Shown piece after piece: positions 1 to 16,667 of a DNA stretch of 60,214 nucleotides (within the stretch, counting starts at the first letter, position 1; each line of letters starts with the position of its first letter). The notes beneath the pieces were generated by a model, which made no database searches, was not told the origin of the DNA, and saw only the letters and a list, made by a program, of their open reading frames with translations. Source of the DNA: Minisyncoccia bacterium (GTDB lineage: Bacteria; Patescibacteriota; Minisyncoccia; Phycocordibacterales; CALRBL01). The position numbers were made by a program, and so were the translations under genes. The stretch is from NCBI GenBank assembly GCA_038230075.1, contig JBBRNV010000002.1, forward strand, positions 1-60,214. Reading direction: 5' to 3'.

Positions 1-267
1 ACCAATCACAAGCATGATGACTGCAAGAAATCCCGCAGCTGCTATTCCTAGTTTGAAAAGACTGTTGATGTATGTTCCGAGTGATGTTCCCGTGTCGACA
101 CCTGATGCAGGTACAAAGTTTCCAATGGGGGCGAGAGGAATGTAGTTAGTGCTTGCATCAGCAAATGCTTCGTTTTTCGTGAACGAAGTGAGTGCTACAC
201 AAGTTGTGAAGAAGAGTAAAGAAAAGAAAAATCGGTAAAAATATTTTGTATTAAAGCGATGTGACAT
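1..267 (-). CDS. Pilin-like membrane protein (CPR TrbC/VirB2-like), partial, runs off window start
   Basis: Manually translated from ATG at 267: MSHRFNTKYFYRFFFSLLFFTTCVALTSF...NYIPLAPIGNFVP...LGTYINSLFKLGIAAAGFLAVIMLVIG. Signal-like N-terminus then a hydrophobic helix; not in the ORF track because it is truncated. Confidence 0.55.
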   Translation of the reverse strand, partial: MSHRFNTKYFYRFFFSLLFFTTCVALTSFTKNEAFADASTNYIPLAPIGNFVPASGVDTGTSLGTYINSLFKLGIAAAGFLAVIMLVIG

Positions 268-1348
268 CGGTTGATGTGTTGTTTTTTCCAAAGAGAATAG
301 AAATATTGGCCCCTGATGTTTGTAGAAACTGATTGGTGTTTTCAAGAATAACTGAAGCTACTGATTGTCCTGTTTTTCCACTCGTGTTTCTAAACACGAG
401 TGAGTTTTGATTGTCAGGAAGCACAACAGCTGTTCCATTAAGTGACCAACTGTATTTTAAGTTAACTCCAGACTTATTTGCTGTATCGAAATAATATGGA
501 AATGCTTCAAGTTGTGCCTCATCTGTTTTCAATGAGTACGCGCCATATACTGCCTTATTAAACATGATCCCAAGAAGTGGTCGATTTTCATACACCACCA
601 ATCGAGGGTCAGTTGGACCGATAAGTGTTGCACCACTTCCTTTTACTGTTCCATCAGGTGAGCTAACATCGACGTCTACTTCTGAATCTTGAACAAGAAC
701 AGGTCCATCGAATTGATATGTTTTTCTTCCGTAGCCTGAATTATCACCATCAACAGTTCCGTCGACTGTCCATTTATAGATTAACTCATCTGCGTTATAA
801 ACTTTTCCATTATCACCAACTAAATTTGGAACAGCTAAGAAGGTGAGATGTCCTTGTGGGGTAAACAGAGATCTTCCTTTGTAGAAAGGAGGAGTGTATG
901 AGCGTGATTCATATACAATTCCAACTTGTTGAGGTCGAACTTTAATTTCTCTGATACTCACTCGCCCACTTGGAGCAGTTATTGATACTCGAATAGTATT
1001 TTCTTGCCCAGTTTTTCCAGCATTCATTGAGAAATCTACTTTTCCAAGACCTTGAAGTTTTGTTACTCCATCAATGCTCCAAATGAATTTTGATGCGTTT
1101 ACATCGAAAGCATATGATTCAATGTGAACATTTACTGTTTGGTTTGGAGATGGGTTCTCAGGGCTTACATCTACAAGAATTTGTTCTTCGATTTCCGGCA
1201 CATAGTCGAAACCTTGAATTGACGATGTTGCAGATGCTTCGGTGTACCGAGTGTCTACAGCATCTTGCGCTCTAAGAGGAGAAAACCAAACTATTCCAAC
1301 AAATGAAACAATTGTTACAAATAGAAATATTTTAATGAAACGAGACAT
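251..1348 (-). CDS. Secreted protein with three Ig/PKD-like beta repeats
   Basis: N-terminal signal/TM; repeats FIWSIDG, YKWTVDG, YSWSLNG. Confidence 0.6.
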   Translation of the reverse strand: MSRFIKIFLFVTIVSFVGIVWFSPLRAQDAVDTRYTEASATSSIQGFDYVPEIEEQILVDVSPENPSPNQTVNVHIESYAFDVNASKFIWSIDGVTKLQGLGKVDFSMNAGKTGQENTIRVSITAPSGRVSIREIKVRPQQVGIVYESRSYTPPFYKGRSLFTPQGHLTFLAVPNLVGDNGKVYNADELIYKWTVDGTVDGDNSGYGRKTYQFDGPVLVQDSEVDVDVSSPDGTVKGSGATLIGPTDPRLVVYENRPLLGIMFNKAVYGAYSLKTDEAQLEAFPYYFDTANKSGVNLKYSWSLNGTAVVLPDNQNSLVFRNTSGKTGQSVASVILENTNQFLQTSGANISILFGKNNTSTDVTSL

Positions 1349-1371
1349 GTATATAGTATATCAAGTTATTT

Positions 1372-1911
1372 TTATGCTGCCATGGGAACGTCATCAGAGT
1401 TATTAGATCTTATATCACTTCCAAAGTTTCCTTGGATAACTTTTCTTTCAGATGGTTCGTTTTGTGATTGCGATTCTTTTGCGCCGTACTTTTCCTTTTT
1501 GTTTTCATGCTCTGCGGCTAACTGTTGTTGCACATTTTGGTTATGCAGATCATCTTCTTTTTTTGTATTATCAACAATCTTACTTACCATGGCCACAATT
1601 CCCCCTTTCACTTTTCCCTTGTCTACCCCAAAAAGAAGCGGTCCTACAATTGGAATTTCGTTCAACAAAAATCGAGAAAAAAAGATTAATCTATTTCCGG
1701 CACTAAGAACATTTACTCCGCTAAATGCAAACCATATTGCAAAAAGGAGATATTCTGCTATTTCCATGAAAAAATTAGCAGCTTCTCCCACCCCTATCCA
1801 TAAAAGTAAGACGTCTATAAGAAAATTGAGCCCATAAAAGATCCACGCCAACATTGTCATGTTGAACTTGGTCATTGTGCTGATTCTATTTTTAAACACC
1901 AAAATTGCCAT
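1372..1911 (-). CDS. Hypothetical membrane protein
   Basis: 179 aa; several hydrophobic segments then a charged tail; co-oriented in cluster. Confidence 0.6.
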   Translation of the reverse strand: MAILVFKNRISTMTKFNMTMLAWIFYGLNFLIDVLLLWIGVGEAANFFMEIAEYLLFAIWFAFSGVNVLSAGNRLIFFSRFLLNEIPIVGPLLFGVDKGKVKGGIVAMVSKIVDNTKKEDDLHNQNVQQQLAAEHENKKEKYGAKESQSQNEPSERKVIQGNFGSDIRSNNSDDVPMAA

Positions 1912-1962
1912 GTCTCTATAATACTATAATTTGAAGTACTGAGAGAATATTCTTGTTGGCTA

Positions 1963-3786
1963 CTAGTTCCCTTTCATTTCTTCTTTGTCCTTTCTAGCTT
2001 TTTGAATAGCAAGAATTTGAGATGGGTTTGAAGTGATGATTTGATCTTCAGTATACGAAGCGATAATTTTAATCGCTACGTGTTTGAGGCCTGCAAAGAA
2101 TATTCCCTCTCCCACATTTGATTCAAGAAGAAGATATTTTTCTTCATCGGTAAGGTTGAATGTTTTCTGAACACTGTCGATTGATGAAGGAGATTGTTTT
2201 AAAAGAATTTGAATAGATGAGTTAGTAATGATGGGTAGTCCGTAAGGAGATTTAAGAAAGTCTTCCACGTCTTGAGTAATGGTTGCCAGTCCTAAATAAT
2301 ATTTTCGTCCTCGTTTTGCCAAAGAAAGTAAGAAAGAGGCCGTATCTTCTGACTTCATCATCCACCACGCTTCATCAATAACAAGAAGACGCTTCTTCAA
2401 CTGTTTTCGAATAGCATTCCAAATAAAGTGCGTAACTATGTACATAGCAACAGGCTTAAGCTCGTCTTCCATGTCTCGAACGGAAAACACAATGAATTTC
2501 TTGTTAATATCGATGTTTGTTGGTCTGTTAATGAATCCTGACCATGTTCCTTTGGTATATTTTGAAAGTTTTTGAACTAAGTTTTCTGCCCCCTCCATTC
2601 CAGCAAGTACAAGTTCGAAGTCGCTCAGAAGTGGTGGCTCTACATCGGTAAAATCTGACTCTGGAGTAATATCTTTAAGTGCATATGTTTCGCTGATTGC
2701 TCGATCAATAATCGCATCTTCTTCAGGACTTAAGCCTCCCATCATAATTCTGAAAAGTCCTACAAGATTTACGATGTTTGATCGAAGAATGTCAGCACCA
2801 CTCTCGTCTGGCCGAGGATGTGGTAAGTCAAATGGATTAATATGATGTTCTGATGTTAAAGAAATGTTGAAGTGTCTTCCCCCAGTCACTTCTGCCATAT
2901 ATTCATATTCTCTTTCTGGATCGATAACAATAACATCTGCATCAAACATCAGTGTTCGAAGAATTTCGAGCTTTGTTGTGTATGATTTTCCTGATCCAGC
3001 CTTAGCAAATGTAACTGAGTTGTAGTTTTCGAGTGAAAATCGGTCGAAAAGCACTAAACTTGAGTTATGTCGGTTGATTCCATATAAAATTCCTTTATCA
3101 GACGTAAGGTCGAATGAGGTGAAAGGAAAAATACTTGAGAGTGGAGCTGAGTTCAATTTTGTATGTACTCCTAACTGGTCATCAGCAATAGGAAGTGTGC
3201 TTTTAAATCCTTGTTCTTGTTGAAATAATGCCGGTTTAATGTACACCAAACTTGATTCAAGCATTGATTTTACCTCAGACTCGAGTTTGTCGAGCTCTTG
3301 TTCGTTGTCTGCATACACAGAAATATAAAGTCCTACATCAAATAGCCGTTCCTGAGCTTGTTGAAGGTTGTCTCGAAGTGCTTCGATGTCTTGATACGCT
3401 GTGTCGAGCATTGGATCTCGCACTAATCCTTTTTCTTCTCGCATATGAATCTGACTTTGTACTTCTGCTACTTTCTTTTGGAGCTCTTTTAACATCTCAG
3501 ATGTTTCAATTGGATGAATAAAGATAGAAATATCGAAGATTTTGTCGAGGTTAATGATTGGTGAGAACCATGACTCCCCTAAAAATCGAGGATATGAGAT
3601 AACAAAAAATGTTCGAACTACTTTGTCTCCTAAATTCATCTCTTTTGCTGTAATTTTAAGCGCAGAAGGAGCAATAATGTCTTGAAGCTCAAGCATTCCT
3701 GATTGATAAATCTCTTGAGGCAAAATCGAAGTAATGATTGGTGCCTTGGTATTGTTTTTTGGTTTGAATATATCGAAGAGTCCCAT
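1963..3786 (-). CDS. VirB4/TraC-like secretion ATPase
   Basis: Walker A AKAGSGKS, DPEREY, Walker B LLVIDEAW, LAKRGRKY, ATITQDVEDF. Confidence 0.9.
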   Translation of the reverse strand: MGLFDIFKPKNNTKAPIITSILPQEIYQSGMLELQDIIAPSALKITAKEMNLGDKVVRTFFVISYPRFLGESWFSPIINLDKIFDISIFIHPIETSEMLKELQKKVAEVQSQIHMREEKGLVRDPMLDTAYQDIEALRDNLQQAQERLFDVGLYISVYADNEQELDKLESEVKSMLESSLVYIKPALFQQEQGFKSTLPIADDQLGVHTKLNSAPLSSIFPFTSFDLTSDKGILYGINRHNSSLVLFDRFSLENYNSVTFAKAGSGKSYTTKLEILRTLMFDADVIVIDPEREYEYMAEVTGGRHFNISLTSEHHINPFDLPHPRPDESGADILRSNIVNLVGLFRIMMGGLSPEEDAIIDRAISETYALKDITPESDFTDVEPPLLSDFELVLAGMEGAENLVQKLSKYTKGTWSGFINRPTNIDINKKFIVFSVRDMEDELKPVAMYIVTHFIWNAIRKQLKKRLLVIDEAWWMMKSEDTASFLLSLAKRGRKYYLGLATITQDVEDFLKSPYGLPIITNSSIQILLKQSPSSIDSVQKTFNLTDEEKYLLLESNVGEGIFFAGLKHVAIKIIASYTEDQIITSNPSQILAIQKARKDKEEMKGN

Positions 3787-3787
3787 G

Positions 3788-4444
3788 TTATTTTTGAAGT
3801 TTAATTGGCTTATCTACTTCTCCTGGATTAAACACTTTTACAAACAGTTCAACTAATTCTTCAGTGCCGAGTTCTGCTACTCTGATTCCACATCGTGACA
3901 GTCCACTCTCAACTACTTCTACTCGCTGTTCAAGTTGGCTTCGCTGCTCTTCAAATTGCTCATTTGCTGACTCGCCACTTTCTTGTTTTGTTTGTTTCTT
4001 ACTAAATATTCCAAATGTTTTTGATTTACTACCATTTAACAGAGATGGACTATAAGGCACAACAACATAAAAACTTTTCGTCATAATACTCACACTCTCA
4101 GTAAACCCTTTAATGAAGTTAATATACTCTCGGGTTTGAATCTTCATTAGGTCTGTTTGCTGAGCCTTTTCACGGTCTTCGAGAAGAGCTAAATATGGCC
4201 TGATATCAAGCTTTCGTGATTGTATTACCATTTCAACCGAGAAGTTAAGTGAGTTCAGAAAGTTTTGAAACTGAAGAATGATAGATGTTTGCTCATCTTG
4301 TGACTTAAGAGCAAAGTTGAGTGATGAGCAAAGTAGAACAGAACGAAATCCTCCATCTTTCAAAATGATGATACCATCTCGAATTTCTTTGATAGGAACA
4401 AACTCTTGTGTTGCGCCAGCATTTTTAGCTAAAGAAACAGACAT
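3788..4444 (-). CDS. TraC/TrsD-like accessory protein of VirB4-like ATPase
   Basis: QEFVPIKEIRDGIIILKDG, SSLNFALKS..EQ, FQNFLNSL; lies between PrgI-like and VirB4-like genes. Confidence 0.65.
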   Translation of the reverse strand: MSVSLAKNAGATQEFVPIKEIRDGIIILKDGGFRSVLLCSSLNFALKSQDEQTSIILQFQNFLNSLNFSVEMVIQSRKLDIRPYLALLEDREKAQQTDLMKIQTREYINFIKGFTESVSIMTKSFYVVVPYSPSLLNGSKSKTFGIFSKKQTKQESGESANEQFEEQRSQLEQRVEVVESGLSRCGIRVAELGTEELVELFVKVFNPGEVDKPIKLQK

Positions 4445-4461
4445 GCAGTTATTGTATCAGA

Positions 4462-4944
4462 CTAGAACTCTAAGCCAAGAGGATTTTTCTTCTCTTTGCT
4501 CATTCTTTCTTTTGCATTGTTTTGAAGTTCTTTAGTTTCCTTCGCGTATGCCCCCTCGTTAATATCAAGACTCCATGTAAGTTCTTTTAATTTACTCTCA
4601 TTAATTTTTGGAATAATAATTGAAGGCATTTCTCCAAGTTGTGTAATAGTTTCCTTCACTTTCTTTTCTTGTTTCTTCCAAATATATAAACGATCACTTA
4701 AGTAGAAATGAAATGCAGCTTCTACCACGTCTATAAATGGCTTATTATTTACTTTATAAAAAGCTAACGCTAAAGAAAACACGGCGAATGCTGGAATAAC
4801 AAAAATGTAGAGAAAGATTGGAAGAAATTTATAGGAAATGAAGCAGAGTCCAGCGCCTCCAGCAAGATATACGAATTGTCTAAAGGTGAGAGGACCAAAT
4901 ATTTTATCTTCTACTTCAATAAATTGAGGTACCTGAAATCGCAT
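4462..4944 (-). CDS. PrgI-family (VirB3-like) membrane protein
   Basis: MRFQVPQFIEVEDKIFGPLTFRQF, two TM helices, LALAFYKVNNKPF. Confidence 0.85.
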   Translation of the reverse strand: MRFQVPQFIEVEDKIFGPLTFRQFVYLAGGAGLCFISYKFLPIFLYIFVIPAFAVFSLALAFYKVNNKPFIDVVEAAFHFYLSDRLYIWKKQEKKVKETITQLGEMPSIIIPKINESKLKELTWSLDINEGAYAKETKELQNNAKERMSKEKKNPLGLEF

Positions 4945-4964
4945 ACATATAGTATAGCAAAATT

Positions 4965-5711
4965 TTATTCAATAGGTTCTCGATATGGATCAATGTTGTA
5001 GTTTCGAGGAACGTTTGGTGGAATTATTTCAGACAGTGGACGTTTTTTTACTACAGTAGCTTCTTCTTTAGCTACCTCAATCACTTCTTGTTTTTTTGGT
5101 ACCTCCTTTATTATTTCCTTGGCTTTCAATTCAATTTTTTCTCCTGGAATTCGTGTCACTCCTTCTCTTGAAGCTGAAATTAAATGAGAGTTATCTTCAA
5201 TTTTTTTGATATCAATCTGATGTGTAGGTTCAGGAACAATATAGGTATGCGCATGAGCTTCTTCGATTGCCTCTTGAACTACTTCTTTGCTTATTTCTTT
5301 TGGTTCTTCAGTGCTTGAAATGATCACTTTGTGATAATCAGATTGAGGATCTTCAATCTCGTTAAGCAAATCTTCTTTCTTTAAAGTTGCATGATATTCT
5401 TCTGTTTCTTCTTCAGCCCTAAGCATTTCACTCTCTTGAAAATCTGCGTTGTTCACTAAAAGATGTTTGATGTTTTTAATAACATTAAGATCAATCTCTC
5501 GAGCGATCATTTCAGCTGTTGTTTTATCAACCTCTAATCTTTTTTCCAAGTTTCCGACATATTTTCTAGAAGCGGTTCTTCCAAGAAGAAGCATATTTGT
5601 TTCCGCATTTAATTCCCCTATCTGATCGATGTGTAGTTTGAATACACTCCCTACTTTTTCAATAGCTTGAATGTATTCTTCCGAACTAATTATTATTTCA
5701 ACTGGATTCAT
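4965..5711 (-). CDS. Hypothetical protein, acidic, C-terminal DPYREPIE
   Basis: 248 aa ORF co-oriented in cluster. Confidence 0.65.
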   Translation of the reverse strand: MNPVEIIISSEEYIQAIEKVGSVFKLHIDQIGELNAETNMLLLGRTASRKYVGNLEKRLEVDKTTAEMIAREIDLNVIKNIKHLLVNNADFQESEMLRAEEETEEYHATLKKEDLLNEIEDPQSDYHKVIISSTEEPKEISKEVVQEAIEEAHAHTYIVPEPTHQIDIKKIEDNSHLISASREGVTRIPGEKIELKAKEIIKEVPKKQEVIEVAKEEATVVKKRPLSEIIPPNVPRNYNIDPYREPIE

Positions 5712-5750
5712 TCTAAATATTTTTTTGATTGATTAAATGTAACTAGAAGC

Positions 5751-8700
5751 TTAAGGGGTTGAAGGTGGTGGAAGTGGTGTTGTTGGAACAATAGGTGCTC
5801 TTGTTGGTTGTGGAGTAACTACTGGAGGAACATAAGGGCCTCGGTTAGCTCGCCCATATGCTGCAAGTGCCGCTCTTGCTTGTGCCTGCAGTTGTTGTTG
5901 AGGATTTTGGGCGGCGGGAGGTTGCTGGTTTCCTCGAGCTTGTTGAGGATTATTCTGTCCTTGTTGTATTGGTAGGAGACCAAAAGTTTGACGAGCCTCA
6001 TTACTTCCCATAATAAATCCATACGCGTTATGATCTTGTTTTTGTGAAATATGTGCCCCAATACTTCGTCTGATTGGTTCCGCAATAGCTGTCATATCCT
6101 TAAGCTGACTTCGTGTTAATTTGTCGATAACATCTGTGTTTTGAAGAAAGGCTGCTCCTGTAGAACTTCCTGCAATTTTTGATAATGCTTTGCCATCATA
6201 TTGACCGAGTAGAGAGCTGAGTAGCACCTCTTGATTTCCGGTAGCAGCAAGCTGTAAGGCTTGTGAGCGCAATCCCCCAATATTTGCCTTTGTGCTTCGT
6301 AAGAATGAATCTCCCTTTTCGATTTCTTCTTGTTGTTTGCTGTTTGTAAATGCCAACAATAATTTACTTCTGAGCGCTGTCTCTTGATCGGTACTGCCTG
6401 TGTCGAAGCTCTCGGCGCTAAGGTGTTTAAGATCTTTAGGATCGATGTTTGTGATAGCTTTAATATCATCCGGACTAACAGTTTTACCAGATATTAATTC
6501 TAGTTGACCAGTTGCTCCTAATTGGAATTTCTTACGTAGTTCAGTGAGGGCTTGGGTAACATGTGTTGTTCTGCTGTTTTTAAATCTATTCTTCTCTTGG
6601 TCACTAAATGATTTACTCTCGAGAACTTTACCAAACTTTTCTGGTGTAAATTGTTCAGCATATTTGTTTACAAAATCTGCACCCTTCTTTTCAATCTCCT
6701 CAGCACTCAATTGGTTAAGAGCTTTTTCAGCATTAGAAATAGCACTCAATAACACACTTCCCTGATTTGCGGTAAGTCCAGATTTTTTTGTGTCAAGGAG
6801 GTCATTAAGTTCAAAAGTTCCACCAACTGCAATTTTCTGAGCTCTAATTTGTCTAAATTGTTCAATTGCAGCTTCTCCTGCTTTGATTTTTTCATCTCTT
6901 TCACTCTTTTCTCGTACATTTCCAAGTTCTACTAGTCTGTCTTTGTCTTTCTTTTGTCTTTCACCGAGCGATAATGAACCTCCGTACTTTGATGTTTCTG
7001 CAGTCTTCAGTCCCTCTCGTGTATTTTCAAGCAATGAATCAACTCCACTAACGCCAGCAATAAACTTTCCAAATTTGTTCTTTGTGAAGAATTTACCGGC
7101 ACCAGTTTGCGCAAAGCGAGCAGCAGCATTGTCATATTTTTTTCCAGCCCATTCTGCTCCTCTTCCCACTGTGTTTCTTCCAATTGCACCTCCTGTATTT
7201 TTTGCAGCATTTCTTAGTCTTCCTGTTACGTTTCCAAATAACTTTCCTGCAACTTGTGCGCCTTCTCCCCCAACCATTTGAGATGCGGCAATTGAGAAGT
7301 ATACAAGGCCGATAACAATAACGAAGTTGATGATGATTGCTAGTGAGTTTGTCGTCGCTCCTGTTGCTGGTACAAGATTATTAAAATCAAGATTTGTTCC
7401 TCCTGCATTATCAACAATTGCAGTAAATCCTGGACCTCGTACAAAACTGAGCGTGAGGTACATCATGATAATAAAGACAGGTGCCGCCAAAAGTTCTTTG
7501 GTCAATCTGTCCCACCATTGTTTTGCATACGATTGAGTGCTTGGGAGAACTGATGCGATGAATGGAAGGGGTGATGCAATGAGAAGAAGAATAAGAGTAA
7601 CAAATCGAAGAATAAGAATAAGGGTTGCTGCAAGAAATGCAATTGCCGTTATAAGAAGAAACACAGAGCCAGCAAGAGAGATGAGAGTGATTCTCCAATA
7701 ATCGTCAGTGCCGAGATTGTCAGTAATGTTTCCAATAAGAGTTGGATTTCCTCCAGATGCACTTATTGTTTTTCCTTGAGATGCCGCAGCTTTTCCATAG
7801 ATCGATGTTAGTTTGAGTGGACCAAGAAATGCATCTGATAATCCCCCGTCTGCTGCCCCGTTACCTATTCGTATTTGATTATAAAATTGAAGGGTTACAA
7901 TATTTGAAAAGTCTATCAACGCTCTTGTGAAAAATAGACTAAAGTTAATAAGAAGGGCAGCAACCACTAGTTTTACAAGAAGTGTTTTCGAATTAAAGCT
8001 CGATGCTCCAATGATGGTGCCAATTGAGATTATGAGCATGATGAAAATGAAACCTATGTTCGCAAAGTCTCTAATGAGCGACCAACCAGTGACAATGCTT
8101 GTAAGTTTGGTCAGATTTGCTGTTATGTTTACTATAGTAATGCTTATTACTTGATTGAACATGACTCCTGCAACATATAGAATCCAAGAAACAGCTCGAA
8201 GAATCACGTAGTTTGAGAAAGTGGCAACTCCTTTTGCAATACAAGTAATAACAGAAAAATTAAGAAAACTGTTACAAGTATCTTTTGTTTGTGGCACCGG
8301 AGATGTTTTTGCTTGCGCATTGAGGCTTTGTCCACTTACTCCTGTTGTTGGACTCACAACTACTGGATTAGCAGTGCCTGCAACATATTGAGACAAACTA
8401 GTTTGAAGAGGTGGATTCTGAGTTACCACTCTGTCTAGCGCAAGTCGCGCCTGAAGTTCCGCTGCTGTACAAGGTGTTCCATTTCCCGCGTTTGATCCTC
8501 CTGTGCAGTTTAAGTTTATTGAACCATTAAAATTGTTTCTTAGAGCTTGAATAGCATTGTATCTATCATCTTGACTGCTTCCTGTTGCATTCTGTACAGA
8601 TTGAATACTTCGTTCTAACTCAAGCTGCTTTTGTTGTTGTGCCATTGCCGCAGTTGCTTGTGTGGGAGTTTGTTCGCGACCTGCTGCAGTTGATATTTGT

Positions 8701-9215
8701 GCAACTAATGCCGCTGGATTACTAGCATTTGCACCATATGCTGCATATCCAACTCCGGGCGATGTTGCAATACAACCGCCTTCACATAGTGTTGGATCAA
8801 ATGTTGTCATGTCTGTTCCTTGTACGTTTGAAAAGATTCTTTCTCCTTGTGTTCCGTCGGGATTTACTCTGTATGCATCGGTCACTGTTGTCACACCTGT
8901 TTCTGGATGTATTACTGTTCGTATTATGGTGTTTCCATCACTTGCGAAATGGATGATATCGTTTGTTTGTGCTCCTGAATCTAAGATTCCTCCTGCGATA
9001 AAGATGGAAGTAACACGAGCATCTGCTGCGAGAGGCACTGTTCCGACAAGTTCTGAAGCCACTATTGCATTCGGATTATTTGCTGCGGTCGCACTTGTAT
9101 TACCAGGAGTTACTGTTCCTGTTCGTGGGTCAAATGATCCTTGTGCGATGACACTACTAAAAAGAATTACAAACGTTAAGCTGCTGAGTATGAGATTTTT
9201 AAGTGCCCTTTTCAT
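5751..9215 (-). CDS. Large VirB6/TrbL-like polytopic membrane protein
   Basis: Signal peptide; T/A/G-rich region with Cys pairs; central multi-TM block (GWSLIRDFANIGFIF, ALLINFSLFFTRALID); helical C-domain; Q/P-rich tail. Confidence 0.75.
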   Translation of the reverse strand: MKRALKNLILSSLTFVILFSSVIAQGSFDPRTGTVTPGNTSATAANNPNAIVASELVGTVPLAADARVTSIFIAGGILDSGAQTNDIIHFASDGNTIIRTVIHPETGVTTVTDAYRVNPDGTQGERIFSNVQGTDMTTFDPTLCEGGCIATSPGVGYAAYGANASNPAALVAQISTAAGREQTPTQATAAMAQQQKQLELERSIQSVQNATGSSQDDRYNAIQALRNNFNGSINLNCTGGSNAGNGTPCTAAELQARLALDRVVTQNPPLQTSLSQYVAGTANPVVVSPTTGVSGQSLNAQAKTSPVPQTKDTCNSFLNFSVITCIAKGVATFSNYVILRAVSWILYVAGVMFNQVISITIVNITANLTKLTSIVTGWSLIRDFANIGFIFIMLIISIGTIIGASSFNSKTLLVKLVVAALLINFSLFFTRALIDFSNIVTLQFYNQIRIGNGAADGGLSDAFLGPLKLTSIYGKAAASQGKTISASGGNPTLIGNITDNLGTDDYWRITLISLAGSVFLLITAIAFLAATLILILRFVTLILLLIASPLPFIASVLPSTQSYAKQWWDRLTKELLAAPVFIIMMYLTLSFVRGPGFTAIVDNAGGTNLDFNNLVPATGATTNSLAIIINFVIVIGLVYFSIAASQMVGGEGAQVAGKLFGNVTGRLRNAAKNTGGAIGRNTVGRGAEWAGKKYDNAAARFAQTGAGKFFTKNKFGKFIAGVSGVDSLLENTREGLKTAETSKYGGSLSLGERQKKDKDRLVELGNVREKSERDEKIKAGEAAIEQFRQIRAQKIAVGGTFELNDLLDTKKSGLTANQGSVLLSAISNAEKALNQLSAEEIEKKGADFVNKYAEQFTPEKFGKVLESKSFSDQEKNRFKNSRTTHVTQALTELRKKFQLGATGQLELISGKTVSPDDIKAITNIDPKDLKHLSAESFDTGSTDQETALRSKLLLAFTNSKQQEEIEKGDSFLRSTKANIGGLRSQALQLAATGNQEVLLSSLLGQYDGKALSKIAGSSTGAAFLQNTDVIDKLTRSQLKDMTAIAEPIRRSIGAHISQKQDHNAYGFIMGSNEARQTFGLLPIQQGQNNPQQARGNQQPPAAQNPQQQLQAQARAALAAYGRANRGPYVPPVVTPQPTRAPIVPTTPLPPPSTP

Positions 9216-9239
9216 CTCGTATATTTTTATTATATCATT

Positions 9240-10394
9240 TTATTTTCCAAAACCTTTGCTCAATGTTTGTTTAATTAATTGTGCAACAAGAGCTGTCACT
9301 ACTTGATCAAATTTTGTAGCGAAAACTGTTCTATCAAGAAGTGACCAGCCATTTTTTGTTGCCGCATCTGCTATGTATGAACCTGGTGTTTTTGTTTTAC
9401 ATGCGCCTTTAACGATTGTTGTTTTTCCGTCGCTTCCGGTAACTGTTTTGTCGTCATCACATACTTTGAAAGAAAGAAAACCCTTGTTTGCTAGTGTTTC
9501 TTGTTTGACTTGGTTCTGTTTGTTTAAGCTATTGAAACCAATTTGGTCTGATGTTTTTAGAAATAGTCCGCTTTGTGTATTTTGTGGACTTTGACTCACG
9601 GTGTAAAGGTTGCTCATGTTTGCGACACTTCGTGAGCCTGAAGTAAATGCATTGTATCCTTGTTGTGTCTGCATAATTTTTGACAGACTACACGACATTC
9701 CATTTCCACCTTTTCCACCATATTGACTTGCTAAGTTGAGGCCAACTTGAGCAGTAATTGGCTTACAAAGATTGAAACCGAGTGTTCCTTGTACAATTCC
9801 GTTAATAAAAGAACCTGCCTCATTGTCGAGAATATTTTTGAAAAATTGTGAAGGATTTTGAATAAAAGCTGGGTTTCCTTTGAATCCACTATTTATCCAC
9901 GCAATGGTTGCGTCAGCGATGTAGGTGATAAATGAGTTAACAAAACAAACTTGCACCGCATCCCATCCAACTGAAATAGGCTTGCCTGCTATCATGAAAC
10001 CAGCTTGTGCCTGGTCAGCAGCACTCGTTGTTTTAACAGCAGTTACAGCTGCTGCAACTCCCCCTGCTGAACCTGGCCCTGAGCGAACCAATCCTTGAAC
10101 AATAATTTGAGCTAAACATGTGCCCAACGAGGTAGCCGCACCTGTTGTGCTGTTGGCTCCATTCTTTGTTTGGCCATTTCCTCCAGCGGCTGCGTATACA
10201 GGCTTTCCATTAACAACTCCTACTTGAACCAAACCCCCACCAGAACCACCCCCTCCTGTTTGTTCTTGTGTTGCGGCGTTCGCATCAACTTGAGCCTGTG
10301 TTTGTCCGCTTGAAGTTGTTGGATAAAAAACAAGTCCTATAATAAGTACAAGACAGATGAATGGTCCTGCTTTTAAAAATAAACGCTGCCTCAT
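9240..10394 (-). CDS. Secreted/membrane protein of T4SS-like cluster
   Basis: Start moved to MRQRLF to remove overlap; signal/TM, Gly-rich linker, WINSGFKGNPAFIQNP, several Cys. Confidence 0.65.
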   Translation of the reverse strand: MRQRLFLKAGPFICLVLIIGLVFYPTTSSGQTQAQVDANAATQEQTGGGGSGGGLVQVGVVNGKPVYAAAGGNGQTKNGANSTTGAATSLGTCLAQIIVQGLVRSGPGSAGGVAAAVTAVKTTSAADQAQAGFMIAGKPISVGWDAVQVCFVNSFITYIADATIAWINSGFKGNPAFIQNPSQFFKNILDNEAGSFINGIVQGTLGFNLCKPITAQVGLNLASQYGGKGGNGMSCSLSKIMQTQQGYNAFTSGSRSVANMSNLYTVSQSPQNTQSGLFLKTSDQIGFNSLNKQNQVKQETLANKGFLSFKVCDDDKTVTGSDGKTTIVKGACKTKTPGSYIADAATKNGWSLLDRTVFATKFDQVVTALVAQLIKQTLSKGFGK

Positions 10395-10413
10395 TGTGTT
10401 AATTTTCTTTTCA

Positions 10414-11232
10414 TTACTCAAATTGAGCATTCCAGACTGCTCCTGGTTCTTTATCACCAAAAATTATACCATTTTTTTTGAAGTAATTAACAAATTCGTT
10501 GAGGATAACTGTTCTGTTTGCTTCAATTTCGTTTAATTTTTTTATTGAAAGAATACCTTTCGCTGGATCGTCTTTATAATTAACAATTGCGCTAAGTGTT
10601 GAATAGGCCAAACTCAGGTTATTCACAAAACTTAAATGAGTGTCTGCCATTTCATAAGGAACTTTTACTTTAAGTAGATTTTGTACGTATTTTTTATAAA
10701 ATTCTATTGAATCTGCATCTGTCATCTCAGTAGCTCCGTTTTGAAAGAGTGCCCATGCGTTTATTTGAGCATTTACGATACCATTTCCATACGCTTTGAT
10801 GTCACTTTCTGATCGTGCGGTAAACATATTGATGTCAGCTTGACCATATTGTAAAGCTTTTATATCAACAGAAGAGTTGTTCAAAGCAGCATTAACCATT
10901 TCATCTTGGGACATGTTATTACTTTCATCATTTGGGTCTAAATTGCTAAATGTTGAGTATAGGCTTTGTGAAATTTGATTACTCAAGTTGTTTCCATCAA
11001 GATATTTGTTTGTTGTGCTTGAAATACTATTAACGGTTGTGGTACCACTCCATAATCCTTGGTCTAAACTTGTTGTAGACGTGTTGAATATTTGCGAAGG
11101 ACTTACAACCGTTAGGCTTATTTGGTCGAGCTTCTTTTCGCCGAAGTGATTTGTAATAAAATCTTTACCGAAAGCGGTGTATGCAAAAAATAATCCAAGC
11201 AGGCAGACTACAATAAGTATCAGTCGCTGCAT
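10414..11232 (-). CDS. Membrane-anchored hypothetical protein
   Basis: Start MQRLILIVVC (N-terminal TM); helical remainder. Confidence 0.65.
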   Translation of the reverse strand: MQRLILIVVCLLGLFFAYTAFGKDFITNHFGEKKLDQISLTVVSPSQIFNTSTTSLDQGLWSGTTTVNSISSTTNKYLDGNNLSNQISQSLYSTFSNLDPNDESNNMSQDEMVNAALNNSSVDIKALQYGQADINMFTARSESDIKAYGNGIVNAQINAWALFQNGATEMTDADSIEFYKKYVQNLLKVKVPYEMADTHLSFVNNLSLAYSTLSAIVNYKDDPAKGILSIKKLNEIEANRTVILNEFVNYFKKNGIIFGDKEPGAVWNAQFE

Positions 11233-11291
11233 TGGTTTCGAAGGAAGAGATATCACGTCAAAAGTATATCATAATGTGTTATACTTTTTTC

Positions 11292-12182
11292 ATGATTTTG
11301 TACACAAAAGATTCTCTGAGATTTGCTCTTGGATCAATTCTTGGTTTGTCACTTCTTTATTTTGGTGCGGCCACTCTTGGTGTGTTTGGAGAGACTTCAG
11401 TTACCATTGTTTCGAACGAGCCACGTGTAAATTCCCACAATAACTCCACAATCTCAACAAATGTTATCAGTCAGATGACAGCAAATTCAATAAATGCAGG
11501 GATTCGTCTTGGAAGTACTGGAGAATCAGTTAGATACCTTCAAATGCTACTAAATAGTGGTGAAGACAACCCCGTTGCACTCACGGGAGCTGGCTCGCGA
11601 GGCTTAGAAACAACATATTTTGGCCAAAGGACTCGCGCAGCCCTCATTGTTTTTCAAAGAAACCATGGTTTACAGCCAACGGGCATAGTTGATGGCCCAA
11701 CTGAAATTCTTATTGATTCTTTGATTGAAGAGGTTCTCAATAGAGAAAGTAGTACCTCGACTCAGGTGGTAAGTGGGACGCAGTCAATTAATGTAGAGAC
11801 AGGAAGTTTTGCAAATACTGCTCCAACATCAGCAGACGCACCTCGAATCATCTCAATTAGTCCCGCAGAAGTGTATGACGGCAATAATATCGTTATTTCT
11901 GGGGCTAATTTCGAATCAGTAAATACAGTTAACACAACTTTTGATGTTTTTCAAAATGTGCCGTTAGTTAATGGAACACTCTCGATCCCCTTCCACTCAG
12001 TGTTGCAACAGAAGATCGACGATGAAATAAGAAAGGCTGGTAGTGGGAAAGATCAAGAACGTGCTCGAAATGCTATGAGAACATACATGACTCAGAATTC
12101 TGTAAATATTCCACTTATGATCACTGTTTCAAACAGCAAAGGAAGTAGTAATATGTATAAAATAGTAATGAAAATAAAATAA
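11292..12182 (+). CDS. Peptidoglycan-binding domain protein with IPT/TIG-like domain
   Basis: IRLGSTGESVRYLQMLLN, YFGQRTRAALIVFQRNHGLQPTGIVDGPT; PRIISISPAEVYDGNNIVISGANF. Confidence 0.8.
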   Translation: MILYTKDSLRFALGSILGLSLLYFGAATLGVFGETSVTIVSNEPRVNSHNNSTISTNVISQMTANSINAGIRLGSTGESVRYLQMLLNSGEDNPVALTGAGSRGLETTYFGQRTRAALIVFQRNHGLQPTGIVDGPTEILIDSLIEEVLNRESSTSTQVVSGTQSINVETGSFANTAPTSADAPRIISISPAEVYDGNNIVISGANFESVNTVNTTFDVFQNVPLVNGTLSIPFHSVLQQKIDDEIRKAGSGKDQERARNAMRTYMTQNSVNIPLMITVSNSKGSSNMYKIVMKIK

Positions 12183-12183
12183 T

Positions 12184-12609
12184 ATGAATGCATTCGCCAA
12201 AGGATTTTTAATGTCAGGACTTCTTTCTCTAGTTTGTGCTGGTTTTTTAATTAATATTAAATATAAAGATGCATTGGCTGCCGCTGAAGTGGTGCGAAGT
12301 CCTTTTGCTGGAACAATTTTAGTTTGGCTGCCATGTTGTAATGGAATTTTGATGTATACAAGCCCTACTATTGAAGAACCATATCAAGCTCGAAATATAA
12401 AGTTGTTCCCCTACTATCTCATGGAGCCTGTGGAAGCTTCAGGAATTGGTTTATATGATGCTTGGGTATTCACATATGGCTCAGGAACACTTGGAAGTGA
12501 AGTTGCGCTTTCAAATGCTTGTGCACAAATTGCATACTACTGTATTCCAGCTTCAACACCGGTAAATACTGTTTTTCAGATGGGAACATCTATTTTGCCA
12601 GCAGTATAA
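12184..12609 (+). CDS. Small Cys-containing secreted hypothetical protein
   Basis: Signal/TM; SPFAGTILVWLPCCNG; CAQIAYYC; 1 nt after upstream gene. Confidence 0.6.
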   Translation: MNAFAKGFLMSGLLSLVCAGFLINIKYKDALAAAEVVRSPFAGTILVWLPCCNGILMYTSPTIEEPYQARNIKLFPYYLMEPVEASGIGLYDAWVFTYGSGTLGSEVALSNACAQIAYYCIPASTPVNTVFQMGTSILPAV

Positions 12610-12624
12610 TTACAGATCTCTTCT

Positions 12625-13440
12625 CTATAGTTCAATTGCTAACTTTTTCCACACAAGTATTTTTATTTCTTGCGCTCTTATTTTTAAATCAATAGTAAGT
12701 TTCTCAAATACTTTTGAAAGTTTCTTAGAGTCATATCCTGCTTCTCGTAAATTTCCAATTAACACTTTTCTTTTATGAGCAAATCCTTTATGAAGGAGTT
12801 CAAAGAATTTTTCTTCTGAAATATCTTCAAAAAAACTATTTGAAATATCTGAAATTGAAATAATTGCTGAATCGACTTTGGGTGCTGGTGAAAAATATTT
12901 TGCATGCACTGTTTCAATATATTTTGGTGTTCCATATGCTTTTACTGAAAGTGACAAAAGTGAATCTCCAATTTCCTTTCCTCTCGAGCGCGCTACAATT
13001 CTTTCTGCCACTTCTTTTTGCACAAGAAGTGTCATGAGTGAAGGTTTATTTTTTGTCGTCAGTAATTCACGAATGATTTCTCCTGTGATGTAGTAAGGAA
13101 TATTTGCCACTACTTTGTATATTCCACCACCCATTATCATTGCTTCATCAATTATCTTTTCTCTTGTTTCTGTATTAAGTATGTCACCATGGATAAGAAA
13201 TAGTTTTTTATTTTGTATCGCCTCACTAAACTTTTGTTCCAAAACTTCCATGAGACGATCATCTTTTTCAATGGCAAATACTGTCGCACCTGTCGAAAGT
13301 AGTGCTTCAGTTAATGCTCCTTTTCCTGGGCCTATTTCAATAACAATATCTTTTTCAATAAGTGACGAGGCTTTAGTCATGCTTTGTAAAGCCTGTTTCG
13401 ATTTGAGAAAGTTTTGTCCAAGAGATTTTTTAGCGAGCAT
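12625..13440 (-). CDS. rsmA: 16S rRNA dimethyladenosine transferase KsgA
   Basis: KKSLGQNFL, EIGPGKGALT, VVANIPYYIT, PAPKVDSA. Confidence 0.97.
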   Translation of the reverse strand: MLAKKSLGQNFLKSKQALQSMTKASSLIEKDIVIEIGPGKGALTEALLSTGATVFAIEKDDRLMEVLEQKFSEAIQNKKLFLIHGDILNTETREKIIDEAMIMGGGIYKVVANIPYYITGEIIRELLTTKNKPSLMTLLVQKEVAERIVARSRGKEIGDSLLSLSVKAYGTPKYIETVHAKYFSPAPKVDSAIISISDISNSFFEDISEEKFFELLHKGFAHKRKVLIGNLREAGYDSKKLSKVFEKLTIDLKIRAQEIKILVWKKLAIEL

Positions 13441-13449
13441 AAAATAGTT

Positions 13450-15402
13450 TTAAAAGTCGATAAAGATAGATTTAATTCCGACGTTGTTTCGCAAATGTTC
13501 TATTCGATCTTCCTCGATATCAAAAATAAATTCTGATGGGGTGTTTATTCTTTGTTGTCCAAAGATTGTTCTAAATGAACAATGGGTAAACCAAAGTTTC
13601 TGTTTTGCCCTAGTGATGGCAACATAAAATAATCTTCGTTCTTCTTCTGCTTGTTCTGCAGTAAGACTATCTTCGAATGACCGTTTATGAGGAAAAAGAT
13701 CTGACTCCAAACCTGTCACAAACACACATTCAAATTCTAATCCTTTTGATGCATGCACTGTCATTAGTTTAATTCCCTTCTTTCGATCGATATTGTCTTG
13801 ATCTGATGCGAGGGCTGCTTCTTCGAGCATTTTTAAAATTGCCTCCTCTTGAGGAAGTTCGTCGTACTTTGTTGCGACCGTCACCAATTCTCTAAGGTTT
13901 TCAAGTTTATCTTCATCTTCGTTTTTTCCACTTTCATACATTGCTTCGAGTCCTGTAATATCAATTATTTTTTTTATGGCAGCCGAGGGTTTTTCTGCCA
14001 TTAGTATTTCTCTGATTGTTTTCAACAATTTTTTAAAAACTCGAGCTTTCTCTTGAAGTGGTTTGGGAAGTGTCGACAAATTTGTTTCTGTTCCATTTTG
14101 AGTCAAATATTCTGACATAATTATTTTTTCTTCTCCTTGTTTGCCGATGCCTCTTCCTGGAACATTAATGATTCGCTTCACATCGCTTTCCCCATCTTCG
14201 TTTAGTGACGCTCGAATATATGAAAGTGCGTCTTTAATTTCTTTCCGTTCAAAATATCGAACACCAAGCATGTCATATGGTAGACCATGTCGAATACATG
14301 CATCTTCAAGAACTCGTGATTGATAGTTTGCTCGGTAAAGTACTGCAATCTCTTGAGGATCGATACCTTGCCGAATTAAGTCAAAACATGTTGATGCAAT
14401 AAACTCTGCCTCGTCGTTCTCATCTGCCGCTCCGAATATTTTAATCTTATCTCCACCTTTTTTACTGGTGAATAAGTTTTTTTCACGTCGATGAACATTT
14501 TTTTTAATGATGTCATTCGCAGCACCTAGAATTATTTCTGTTGATCGATAGTTCTCTTCAAGAAGAACGATCTCTGCATTTGGATAATCTTTTTCAAAAT
14601 TAAGAATATTTCGAATATCAGCTCCTCTCCAGCTGTAAATATTTTGGTCGATGTCTCCTACTACACAAATATTTCTATATTTTGACCCTAATTTTTTAGC
14701 GATTAAATATTGAACTTTGTTTGTATCTTGGTACTCATCAATGTGAATATATCTCCACATCTCTTGGTATGACTCTAAAATCTTTGGATGATGCTCAAGT
14801 AGTTCTGCTGTTTTTAGAAGAAGGTCGTCAAAATCGAGAGATTTCTCTTTGTTCAAGATTTCTTCATATTTTTCCCAGACTTGCACTGTAATACTTTCAG
14901 TAAAGTCATTTGTTTTTGCATGCTGTTTAAAAAAAAGAAGGTTTCTTCCTTCACCTTTTTCTTTTGAGATTCGATACATAATATTTCCCGGATCATATTC
15001 CTTTGGATTCAACCCAACCTTTTCCATGGCGTTTTTTATGGCTCGCTTTGAATCAGAGGAATCAAAAATGCTGAAATGTCGTGGAAGACCAAAAATCTGA
15101 CTATGTTGTCTCAAAATATGTACTCCGAGCGCATGAAAAGTAGAAATAAAAGGAACAGCTCCGTCGATGTTTCTTTCGTACATATTCTTAAATACCCGTT
15201 CTCGCATCTCTTTAGCTGCTTTGTTGGTGAAAGTGATGGCTAAAATATTGTTTCCTGTCACTCCTTCAGTTTTTTTAGAAATGATGTGCAGAATTCGCTC
15301 AGTTAGTGTTTTGGTCTTTCCAGCCCCAGCTCCCGCTAGAATTAAAAGTGGTCCTTCTGTTTTTAGTACTGCCTCAGATTGCTTCGAGTTCAAAGAATTC
15401 AT
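13450..15402 (-). CDS. pcrA: ATP-dependent DNA helicase PcrA/UvrD
   Basis: LAGAGAGKT, AITFTNKAA, DEYQDTN, VGDIDQNIYSWRGA, MTVHASKGLEF, EEERRLFYVAITRA. Confidence 0.97.
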   Translation of the reverse strand: MNSLNSKQSEAVLKTEGPLLILAGAGAGKTKTLTERILHIISKKTEGVTGNNILAITFTNKAAKEMRERVFKNMYERNIDGAVPFISTFHALGVHILRQHSQIFGLPRHFSIFDSSDSKRAIKNAMEKVGLNPKEYDPGNIMYRISKEKGEGRNLLFFKQHAKTNDFTESITVQVWEKYEEILNKEKSLDFDDLLLKTAELLEHHPKILESYQEMWRYIHIDEYQDTNKVQYLIAKKLGSKYRNICVVGDIDQNIYSWRGADIRNILNFEKDYPNAEIVLLEENYRSTEIILGAANDIIKKNVHRREKNLFTSKKGGDKIKIFGAADENDEAEFIASTCFDLIRQGIDPQEIAVLYRANYQSRVLEDACIRHGLPYDMLGVRYFERKEIKDALSYIRASLNEDGESDVKRIINVPGRGIGKQGEEKIIMSEYLTQNGTETNLSTLPKPLQEKARVFKKLLKTIREILMAEKPSAAIKKIIDITGLEAMYESGKNEDEDKLENLRELVTVATKYDELPQEEAILKMLEEAALASDQDNIDRKKGIKLMTVHASKGLEFECVFVTGLESDLFPHKRSFEDSLTAEQAEEERRLFYVAITRAKQKLWFTHCSFRTIFGQQRINTPSEFIFDIEEDRIEHLRNNVGIKSIFIDF

Positions 15403-15716: not shown

Positions 15717-16667
15717 TTGTGTTCGAATTCTCCTCAGGTTTATGCTCAAATTACTCCTGATAATCTTCATACAATGGCATTACTCGAAGCATCGCCATCT
15801 CCTGCTCCCGAACGAGCGTCGAAAGTAGAAGATGTTGCTGTTATGGTAGAAGGTGTGGCGTTGGCTGCACGTCCTCAGATCATGAGTGGGGGTGAAGAAG
15901 TTTCTTTGTCTACATCAGATCAAATTAGTGTGTATTCGGTAAAATCTGGCGATACACTCTCTGAAATTGCCGACATGTTTGGAATCACCCCCAATACCAT
16001 TGTGTGGGCAAACGATCTCGATATAAAGAAACCATTAAAAAACGATCAGCAGCTCATTATTCTTCCTGTCTCTGGAGTGAAATACACGGTTAAAAAAGGA
16101 GACACACTTAAAACTGTTGCTAAAACCTTTAAAGGAGATGTCGATGAAATCATTTCATACAACAATCTTGAAAGCGACAAAGACATAACTGTTGGAGATA
16201 TTATCATCATTCCAAATGGCGAAGTTGTTGCTTTGGCTAAGAACACAACTAAAAAGAGTACAACATCAACCAAAGGAGTTGCTGGAAATGTTAAGATTTA
16301 CAACTCTGGCCTAAAAGATACTTCAGGATACTTTATGCGACCAATTATTGGTGGAGTAAAAACTCAAGGTTTGCATGGTCATAACGGAGTAGACCTTGCT
16401 AGTTCGTTAAATACTCCAATTCTAGCAGCCGCCGCAGGAACAGTTATTATTGCACGTGAGGGTGGATGGAATGGTGGATACGGTTCATACGTAGTAGTTT
16501 CTCACTCAAATGGAACACAAACATTGTATGCCCACATGAATCACACCAATGTCGAGCAAGGTCAACGTGTCGAGCAAGGTCAGGTGCTTGGATACATGGG
16601 ATCAACCGGTGACTCATCTGGAGTCCACCTACACTTTGAAGTTCGAGGAGGAATTAATCCTTTCTAA
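15717..16667 (+). CDS. LysM x2 + M23 peptidase (start uncertain; frame open from 15552)
   Basis: YSVKSGDTLSEIA, YTVKKGDTLKTVA; HNGVDLA, TLYAHM, HLHFEVR. Confidence 0.93.
   Translation: MCSNSPQVYAQITPDNLHTMALLEASPSPAPERASKVEDVAVMVEGVALAARPQIMSGGEEVSLSTSDQISVYSVKSGDTLSEIADMFGITPNTIVWANDLDIKKPLKNDQQLIILPVSGVKYTVKKGDTLKTVAKTFKGDVDEIISYNNLESDKDITVGDIIIIPNGEVVALAKNTTKKSTTSTKGVAGNVKIYNSGLKDTSGYFMRPIIGGVKTQGLHGHNGVDLASSLNTPILAAAAGTVIIAREGGWNGGYGSYVVVSHSNGTQTLYAHMNHTNVEQGQRVEQGQVLGYMGSTGDSSGVHLHFEVRGGINPF

Follow-up and report, generated by a model that had tools for sequence, protein, structure and literature searches.

The window analyzed here is a stretch of 60,214 nucleotides from a Minisyncoccia bacterium (assembly GCA_038230075.1, contig JBBRNV010000002.1, forward strand), and its first 11.3 kb carry the genes of a type IV secretion system (T4SS). 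Position 1 of the window is base 1 of contig C2; the genome consists of nine contigs with a total of 734 kb and is 99.98% complete. We use C1, C2 and C5 for contigs of this genome, and G and L labels for the genomes of relatives and for locus extracts. The ten tightly packed open reading frames (ORFs) at 1-11256 are all on the minus strand and form one tight operon. A scan of positions 1-13500 for promoters and terminators gave nothing above shuffled controls, and because it stayed at chance level the operon boundaries could not be drawn from it. A first-pass annotation of this DNA had listed pilin-like, Ig-repeat, VirB4-like, TraC-like, PrgI-like and VirB6-like genes on the minus strand, and all of them were found where it placed them. 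The locus is very probably the core, vertically inherited T4SS of the Paceibacteria (Parcubacteria, Candidate Phyla Radiation), which belongs to a Patescibacteria lineage of the monoderm MPF-FATA class and is fixed beside the replication origin.

A VirB4 scan with one genome per species returned 592 relatives, and the locus statistics given below come from the best 80 of these 592, all of which are Parcubacteria/Paceibacteria. This set was ranked by VirB4 similarity, so that VirB4 identity is slightly inflated in it. The 42 loci of at least 19 kb among the 80 served as the synteny subset. A second set, based on taxonomy, contained 31 relatives from 25 families, and gene order was read in 8 of them.

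The gene at 1963-3786 (minus strand) encodes a VirB4-type ATPase that matches NF045971 conju_CD1110 with 378.4 bits (cut-off 325) and PF19044 P-loop_TraG with 93.6 bits. The ORF corresponds to a canonical VirB4 minus its N-terminal fifth, and its product is the predicted motor of the system. VirB4 was present in 29 of the 31 relatives of the taxonomy-based set with 74-88% identity. One base upstream of virB4 is a gene for a 218-residue protein (3788-4444, minus strand) that represents the VirB4 N-terminal domain as a separate polypeptide. This protein matches positions 99-233 of VirB4_plasma (E 7e-12) and also positions 2-119 of CD1110, covers solely the N-terminal part of VirB4 proteins, and has a weak match to TrsD (E 4e-4) that is under the curated cut-off. 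The gene had been described as TraC-like; it is present, and more exactly it encodes a TrsD-type N-domain split off from VirB4. Next to it is the gene for a PrgI/VirB3-like membrane protein (4462-4944, minus strand; PF12666, 41.4 bits, cut-off 27). Both the TrsD-like gene and prgI were found in 79 of the 80 loci.

An extended VirB6-like polytopic membrane protein of 1154 amino acids is encoded at 5751-9215 (minus strand), and was recognized by its topology and by weak family matches. Hydropathy analysis placed one hydrophobic segment at the N-terminus and six more in a core at residues 341-635, seven in total, which corresponds to a layout of a signal or transmembrane (TM) segment, an ectodomain of about 310 residues, a six-TM core and a hydrophilic tail of about 500 residues with a Pro/Gln-rich end. 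The match of the protein itself to NF046089 is weak (17.7 bits, cut-off 120, E 1e-3). Among 40 orthologues, whose lengths range from 606 to 1195 residues, three match PF04610 TrbL/VirB6, the best with 6e-5. The VirB6-like label is reasonable, although not proven for the copy in this genome.

The operon runs off the window in the gene at 1-345 (minus strand), the 5' part of an in-cluster VirB2-like pilin-domain gene with a signal peptide, a YxPLAP motif and the first TM segment. The first-pass annotation had taken the cluster to be cut by the window edge; the edge is indeed the end of a contig, and the continuation was found on C5. By tblastn, the pilin gene continues at the C5 end (C5:90331->89329) in register, with about 7 codons missing, and the C5 part contains the second TM segment and a C-terminal extension of about 300 residues with an M15/LAS-like motif. 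A custom pilin hidden Markov model matched both C2:1-345 (E 1.5e-9) and C5:89329-90330 (E 5.4e-13), and 29 of 30 in-cluster pilin orthologues match PF18895. The pilin-like gene of the first-pass annotation is accordingly the first half of a T4SS_pilin domain, the second half of which is on C5, and with it the locus is complete.

Between the pilin gene and virB4 is g365 (251-1348, minus strand), which encodes an exported or N-terminally anchored protein of 365 amino acids with three tandem Ig-like beta-sandwich domains. An AlphaFold model built with 40 orthologues (predicted local distance difference test, pLDDT, 87.8; predicted template modelling score, pTM, 0.73) has an N-terminal helix followed by the three beta-sandwich domains, and its top Foldseek matches are phage Hoc (3shs, 8.8e-9) and the SiiE adhesin (2yn3), which bears out the earlier description of an Ig-repeat gene. 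The gene was found in 77 of the 80 loci, and a pilin-domain gene comes after it in 67 of the 80. The g365 protein is a candidate surface adhesin or spacer.

Past the pilin gene, C5 carries g488, YidC, RnpA, DnaA and DnaN, with DnaA/DnaN less than 6 kb from the pilin gene. On the opposite side are the housekeeping genes for KsgA (12625-13440, minus strand; PF00398, 164.8 bits) and a UvrD/PcrA helicase (13450-15402, minus strand; PF00580, 275 bits), both outside the system. With KsgA/UvrD on one side and YidC-RnpA-DnaA-DnaN on the other, the locus is bracketed by origin-proximal housekeeping genes. The order UvrD-KsgA-(PG-binding)-g280-g406-VirB6-(g248)-PrgI-TrsD-VirB4-g365-pilin-g488-YidC-(RnpA)-DnaA-DnaN was found in all 42 loci of the synteny subset, and the same gene order was found in the 8 relatives picked by taxonomy. 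A genome-wide search for six relaxase Pfam families (PF03432, PF01076, PF08751, PF02486, PF03389 and PF07514) found none, MOBC-type relaxases being outside this search. No relaxase, type IV coupling protein (T4CP) or integrase was found in the cluster or its flanks including C5, where no search for att repeats was made. A T4CP homologue was within 10 kb in one of the 80 related loci. The base composition and GC content of the cluster are those of the rest of the genome. Gene order, the distribution and identity of VirB4, the lack of relaxase matches and the uniform composition together indicate that the locus is vertically inherited and fixed beside the replication origin.

The system has already been published, and the locus matches the Patescibacteria T4SS point by point (Quinonero-Coronel 2025; Wang 2023). 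The statement in the first-pass annotation that related loci are widespread in Patescibacteria was correct, and these loci have been described in detail (PMC12102498): their VirB4 is near the monoderm MPF-FATA class and occurs with TrsD, PrgI, VirB6 and VirB2-like pilins, relaxases are few, T4CP homologues are far from virB4, and the Paceibacteria systems are near dnaA, dnaN, rnpA and ksgA. With the Paceibacteria arrangement of Quinonero-Coronel et al. 2025 (Microb Genom, PMC12102498) our locus has in common an MPF-FATA VirB4, the adjacent TrsD-like protein, PrgI/VirB3, a VirB6-like protein and PF18895 pilins, as well as the lack of a relaxase, the distant T4CP homologues and the dnaA/dnaN/rnpA/ksgA context; nothing essential differs. 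Three features found here are absent from the text of that paper: the long hypervariable C-terminal module of the pilin, a separate array of short pilins and the three-Ig downstream protein.

The T4SS of Southlakia epibionticum ML1 (SEML1_0004-0019; Wang et al. 2023, Cell, PMC10633639), nearly every gene of which is required to grow as an epibiont, is similar in its dnaA-dnaN neighbour, VirB4, small upstream partner, PrgI, VirB6-like proteins and lack of a relaxase, and also in having six PF18895 pilins and, downstream of virB4, Ig-like exported proteins together with M15 and lysozyme/Cys-protease hydrolases (PMC10633639). It differs in its class (Saccharimonadia), in its large multidomain hydrolases without a listed pilin domain, in a pilin array that is inside the locus, and in an NTF2-like (VirB8-like) protein (PMC10633639), which was not found here. 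A 2025 review assigned the Southlakia locus to a new branch within the T4SS superfamily. The Gram-positive conjugative systems of the pCF10 type have in common with our locus a CD1110-type VirB4, PrgI, a putative VirB6-type channel protein and the lack of an outer-membrane core; a candidate counterpart of their membrane-anchored wall hydrolase, with domains of the SLT and CHAP/NlpC kinds, is seen in relatives of our genome. Unlike them, our locus lacks a relaxase, a PrgB-type adhesin and an operon-encoded T4CP, and a VirB8-like protein was not found in it; VirB2-like pilins are present, VirB4 is split and the genes are a fixed chromosomal core set. The bacteria-killing X-T4SS of Xanthomonadales offers a functional analogy: it acts on or against other bacteria and its cargo consists of peptidoglycan hydrolases. 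This machine is of the diderm VirB/D4 kind, has separate effectors that VirD4 recognizes via a C-terminal signal, and is homologous only in the T4SS core.

Further parts are encoded elsewhere in the genome. Two soluble ATPases of the VirD4/TraD family are on the same contig, at C2:102307-104316 (L024:8308-10317) and at about C2:87.0-89.2 kb (L014), with matches to TrwB_AAD_bind, T4SS-DNA_transf and TraG-D_C. They are 44% identical to each other, have no N-terminal TM segment and lie among housekeeping genes, and both were present in all 31 relatives. The earlier statement that there is no coupling protein consequently holds for the cluster and its flanks but not for the genome. Beside gyrA on C1 is a tandem array of six short-pilin genes (C1:181219-183685; L105:7220-9685) encoding proteins of 90, 128, 125, 114, 126 and 174 amino acids. 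Genome-wide, PF18895 has six matches at E<=0.01, and at least three genes of the C1 array are above the cut-off. Relatives have similar unlinked pilin arrays of 4-7 genes, and the typical genome of the order has one unlinked pilin array and, next to virB4, one or two long ORFs with a pilin domain.

The components differ strongly in their rates of change. Across the related loci, median identity is 80% for VirB4, 62% for the TrsD-like protein and 53% for PrgI, compared with 57% for DnaA, 52% for UvrD, 47% for KsgA, 46% for DnaN and 45% for YidC among the flanking housekeeping proteins. The exposed parts are lower, at 32% for g365, 30% for VirB6 and for g488, 28% for g406 and 25% for g280. The taxonomy-based set gave the same contrast between VirB4 and the other parts. 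A highly constrained cytoplasmic motor combined with fast-changing exposed parts fits what would be expected of a machine that meets another cell.

A hypervariable feature is the region behind the hairpin of the in-cluster pilin-domain protein. More than 100 residues follow the hairpin in 53 of 71 such genes (median 188), and 54 extensions, that of our genome included, fell into 34 sequence clusters. Wall-enzyme domains were found above Pfam cut-offs on the proteins of relatives, namely SLT (26.7 bits), NlpC/P60 (24.6 bits, with CHAP) and 3D (27.8 bits); one relative has a sub-threshold M15 match, one database protein combines VanY with PF18895, and many other extensions are long helical segments. 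The module of our genome groups with an M15-like set, in which it has an H-x3-G-x3-D ... H motif and 38-40% identity to similar modules. The topology of VirB2 puts the C-terminus on the outer side of the membrane, a suitable location for a wall enzyme. In the closest relative (L025), a pair of pilin-domain genes stands in tandem, one with NlpC/P60 and one with SLT, the two activities that Gram-positive VirB1-type hydrolases combine. Tandem pairs of this kind were seen at L015:4374-6380 (G014) and L025:13757-15868, where the N-terminal halves are near-identical and the enzymatic C-termini differ, with CHAP or NlpC/P60 in one gene and DPBB-like or SLT in the other. It was also observed that two independent assemblies of the genus break inside the pilin-hydrolase gene, our own (window 1 / C5:90332) and G001 (start of its C1, L020:1-303); variation of the C-terminal module at the strain or population level is a possible cause of these breaks.

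A fusion of a pilin hairpin with a variable hydrolase was not found described in the limited literature searched, which is not proof of novelty, and the pilin hairpin with a hypervariable C-terminal module that is often a peptidoglycan hydrolase is possibly a new detail. We put forward tentatively, and as a proposal that could well prove wrong, that the in-cluster "pilin" is a VirB2-VirB1 chimera and not a fibre subunit, in which a hairpin docked on the machine would carry an exchangeable extracellular module. This module would be either a wall hydrolase from one of at least three catalytic classes (SLT, NlpC/P60-CHAP and 3D), to which an M15/VanY-type peptidase can probably be added, or an extended helical segment, and would be swapped between lineages, perhaps between strains, in the manner of polymorphic toxins. 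It would act on the wall of the host where the two cells touch, and the short pilins of the array would provide the conduit.

The remaining genes of the operon encode membrane proteins and one probably cytoplasmic protein. The bitopic or secreted protein g406 (9240-10460, minus strand), present in 56 of the 80 loci, has a conserved W-IN-GF-G-P core (alignment A6), and the true start of its gene is probably further inside the ORF, near 10394. Its orthologues carry variable adhesin-type C-terminal domains (Bact_surface_Ig-like in two, F5/8 type C in two and SprB in one), so that an invariant W..G-F-G-P core is seen next to differing C-terminal domains. One g406 orthologue matches DUF4141, a family annotated on genes that accompany tra genes in conjugative transposons of Bacteroidetes. 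The operon begins with the gene for the bitopic membrane protein g280 (10414-11232, minus strand; start ATG 11232), for which the AlphaFold model (pLDDT 82.4) has an all-helical ectodomain in the form of a helical bundle; Foldseek with this model returned nothing below E 0.4. By size and topology g280 was the likeliest analogue of VirB8 (or VirB5), and its all-helical fold and the lack of a Foldseek match ruled it out as VirB8-like. Between virB4 and g365 lies g179 (1372-1911, minus strand), which by hydropathy encodes a small protein that has two TM segments and ends in a charged tail. Whether the gene occurs at this place differs between relatives, with weak positional homologues in L015, L017 and L020. 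The acidic protein g248 (4965-5711, minus strand) has no TM segment by hydropathy and is probably cytoplasmic; it was detected in 24 of the 80 loci with 28% identity. On C5, between the pilin gene and yidC, g488 (C5:87841-89307; L023:11842-13308) encodes an N-terminally anchored protein of 488 amino acids in which propeller families (TolB, PD40, DPPIV-N) give faint signals and a C-terminal pair of cysteines is conserved. The protein is found in 63 of the 80 loci and may belong to the system.

At the other end of the operon, two genes are transcribed away from the cluster, as the first-pass annotation had noted. The divergent intergenic region (11233-11291) measures 59 bp between the ATGs at 11232 and 11292. 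The earlier figure of a 59-bp spacer is thus reproduced if these starts are used for g280 and the peptidoglycan-binding gene; with ATG 11274 as the start of the plus-strand gene it shrinks to 41 bp, and the longest ORFs overlap. The first of the two genes (11292-12182, plus strand) encodes a membrane-anchored PG_binding_1 protein in which no catalytic domain was found. Of the peptidoglycan-binding and IPT assignment made previously, the PG_binding_1 domain is solid (PF01471, 39.8 bits) and the possible IPT/TIG domain is sub-threshold (14.6 against a cut-off of 20.9 bits). A homologue occupies the same position in 10 of the 80 loci and in G001, G016 and G022, and the gene is an accessory gene at the edge of the cluster. 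The second (12184-12609, plus strand) encodes a small Cys-rich exported protein of 141 amino acids with a CCNG motif, and is a genus-level orphan: in a CCNG-motif scan its sole counterpart was in the same-genus genome G001, at the same position, with 148 amino acids and with the CCNGIL and MGT motifs in common. Just past UvrD is a LysM-LysM-M23 peptidase gene (15717-16667), a homologue of which is near the cluster in 11 of the 80 loci; M23 and LysM domains have been noted on VirB1-like proteins of Patescibacteria (PMC12102498). Pfam and NCBIfam gave no family for g365, g179, g248, g406, g280, the Cys-rich protein, g488 or the C-terminal module of our pilin, and PDB-sequence profile searches with g365, g280, the M15-like module, VirB6, g406 and g488 gave marginal matches only (for example Hoc 0.02, TolB 0.007 and D-Ala-D-Ala carboxypeptidase 0.55).

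We propose that the parts would work together as follows. A VirB4 hexamer, with the TrsD-like N-domain supplied in trans, would dock at the cell membrane on PrgI/VirB3 and the extended VirB6 channel, and the extracytoplasmic part would be built by the bitopic g280, g406 and the three-Ig g365. The VirB2-like hairpin protein would display its C-terminal cell-wall enzyme (M15-like in our genome) on the outer side of the membrane, and this enzyme would open the peptidoglycan, the job of VirB1/PrgK in other systems. The short VirB2-like pilins of the separate six-gene array would form a fibre or conduit, and the pair of soluble T4CP-like ATPases with distant genes may hand substrate to the machine or take it over. 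Such a machine would act at the contact with the host cell and move macromolecules, and would not conjugate an element. The suggestion of the first-pass annotation of a host-contact or export machine agrees with the literature and with the fast evolution of the surface parts.

Certain points weigh against this interpretation. The arguments for VirB6 are the topology of the protein, the position of its gene and the matches of a small share of the orthologues, and the PDB-sequence profile search with this protein returned nothing relevant. No VirB8-like (NTF2-fold) protein was found, g280 being the candidate that was modelled. The C-terminal module of our pilin has no significant family or PDB match, its M15 assignment coming from the motif, the identity to similar modules and the sub-threshold match of a relative. 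In Southlakia the T4CP homologue is not essential (PMC12102498), which makes the link of the T4CP-like ATPases to the machine uncertain. One alternative would be that the locus is an integrative and conjugative element (ICE), or the decayed remnant of one, with its relaxase, T4CP and integrase just past the window edge. VirB4, PrgI and VirB6 do descend from monoderm conjugation machinery, NF045971 is a VirB4 family of conjugative elements, and the cluster is cut by the window edge. However, the edge was bridged, and the sequence past it contains the remainder of the pilin gene, g488 and housekeeping genes, with neither a relaxase nor a T4CP nor an integrase among them; throughout an order the flanking genes stay the same; and an ICE is further opposed by the conservation of VirB4 across relatives, the absence of the six relaxase families from a 99.98%-complete genome and the uniform composition. 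We rejected the ICE on these grounds of synteny, distribution and relaxase absence and consider it scarcely credible, in agreement with the first-pass annotation, which had argued against a conjugative element.

Two other explanations accept a chromosomal machine and assign it a different task. The same machine could be an importer of host DNA or other macromolecules, comparable to ComB in Helicobacter or Ced in Sulfolobales, that feeds an organism unable to make nucleotides. Import is the hypothesis favoured in PMC12102498, and the universal conservation of two T4CP-like ATPases with a TrwB DNA-binding-domain signature would suit it; the dispensability of the Southlakia T4CP homologue, although the T4SS genes are essential there, and the loss of comEC without an effect on growth (PMC12102498, PMC12857230) speak against it. 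Models of the Ced family scored far under their cut-offs (CedB 36.6 bits against 700, CedD 18 bits against 600), so that the system is not of this family, ComB models being outside the search. Export, import and a combination of the two cannot be told apart from the sequence, which gives no sign of the direction of transport, and this counts against an importer as it does against the interpretation that we prefer. We judge import to be unlikely, while still a serious contender, and would place export or contact-dependent transfer ahead of it by a small margin, mainly because T4CP and comEC are dispensable in Southlakia while the T4SS is not. Rather more improbable is that the locus builds an attachment organelle alone, consisting of a pilus and adhesins, in which there is no transport and the hydrolase passes the fibre through the cell's own wall. 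The plentiful fast-evolving surface parts, which include the Ig tandem, the adhesin-type domains on g406 orthologues and the pilin arrays, would be expected of such an organelle, but purifying selection on the motor, VirB4, is extreme (80% identity compared with 57% for DnaA), the VirB6 channel protein is conserved, and these genomes already have type IV pili for adhesion (PMC10633639).

Read as the core T4SS of the Paceibacteria, the window provides a clean and complete example in which the scattered parts (the main operon, the pilin array and the two T4CP-like ATPases) have been located; it does not represent a new kind of system. Few gene sets are as well conserved as this system in these genomes, which have been stripped of most biosynthesis, and the sole genetically tractable relative cannot live as an epibiont without the homologous system. 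The protein beside virB4 that joins a pilin hairpin to a hydrolase could be the part that breaches the wall, and its variability could track host range.

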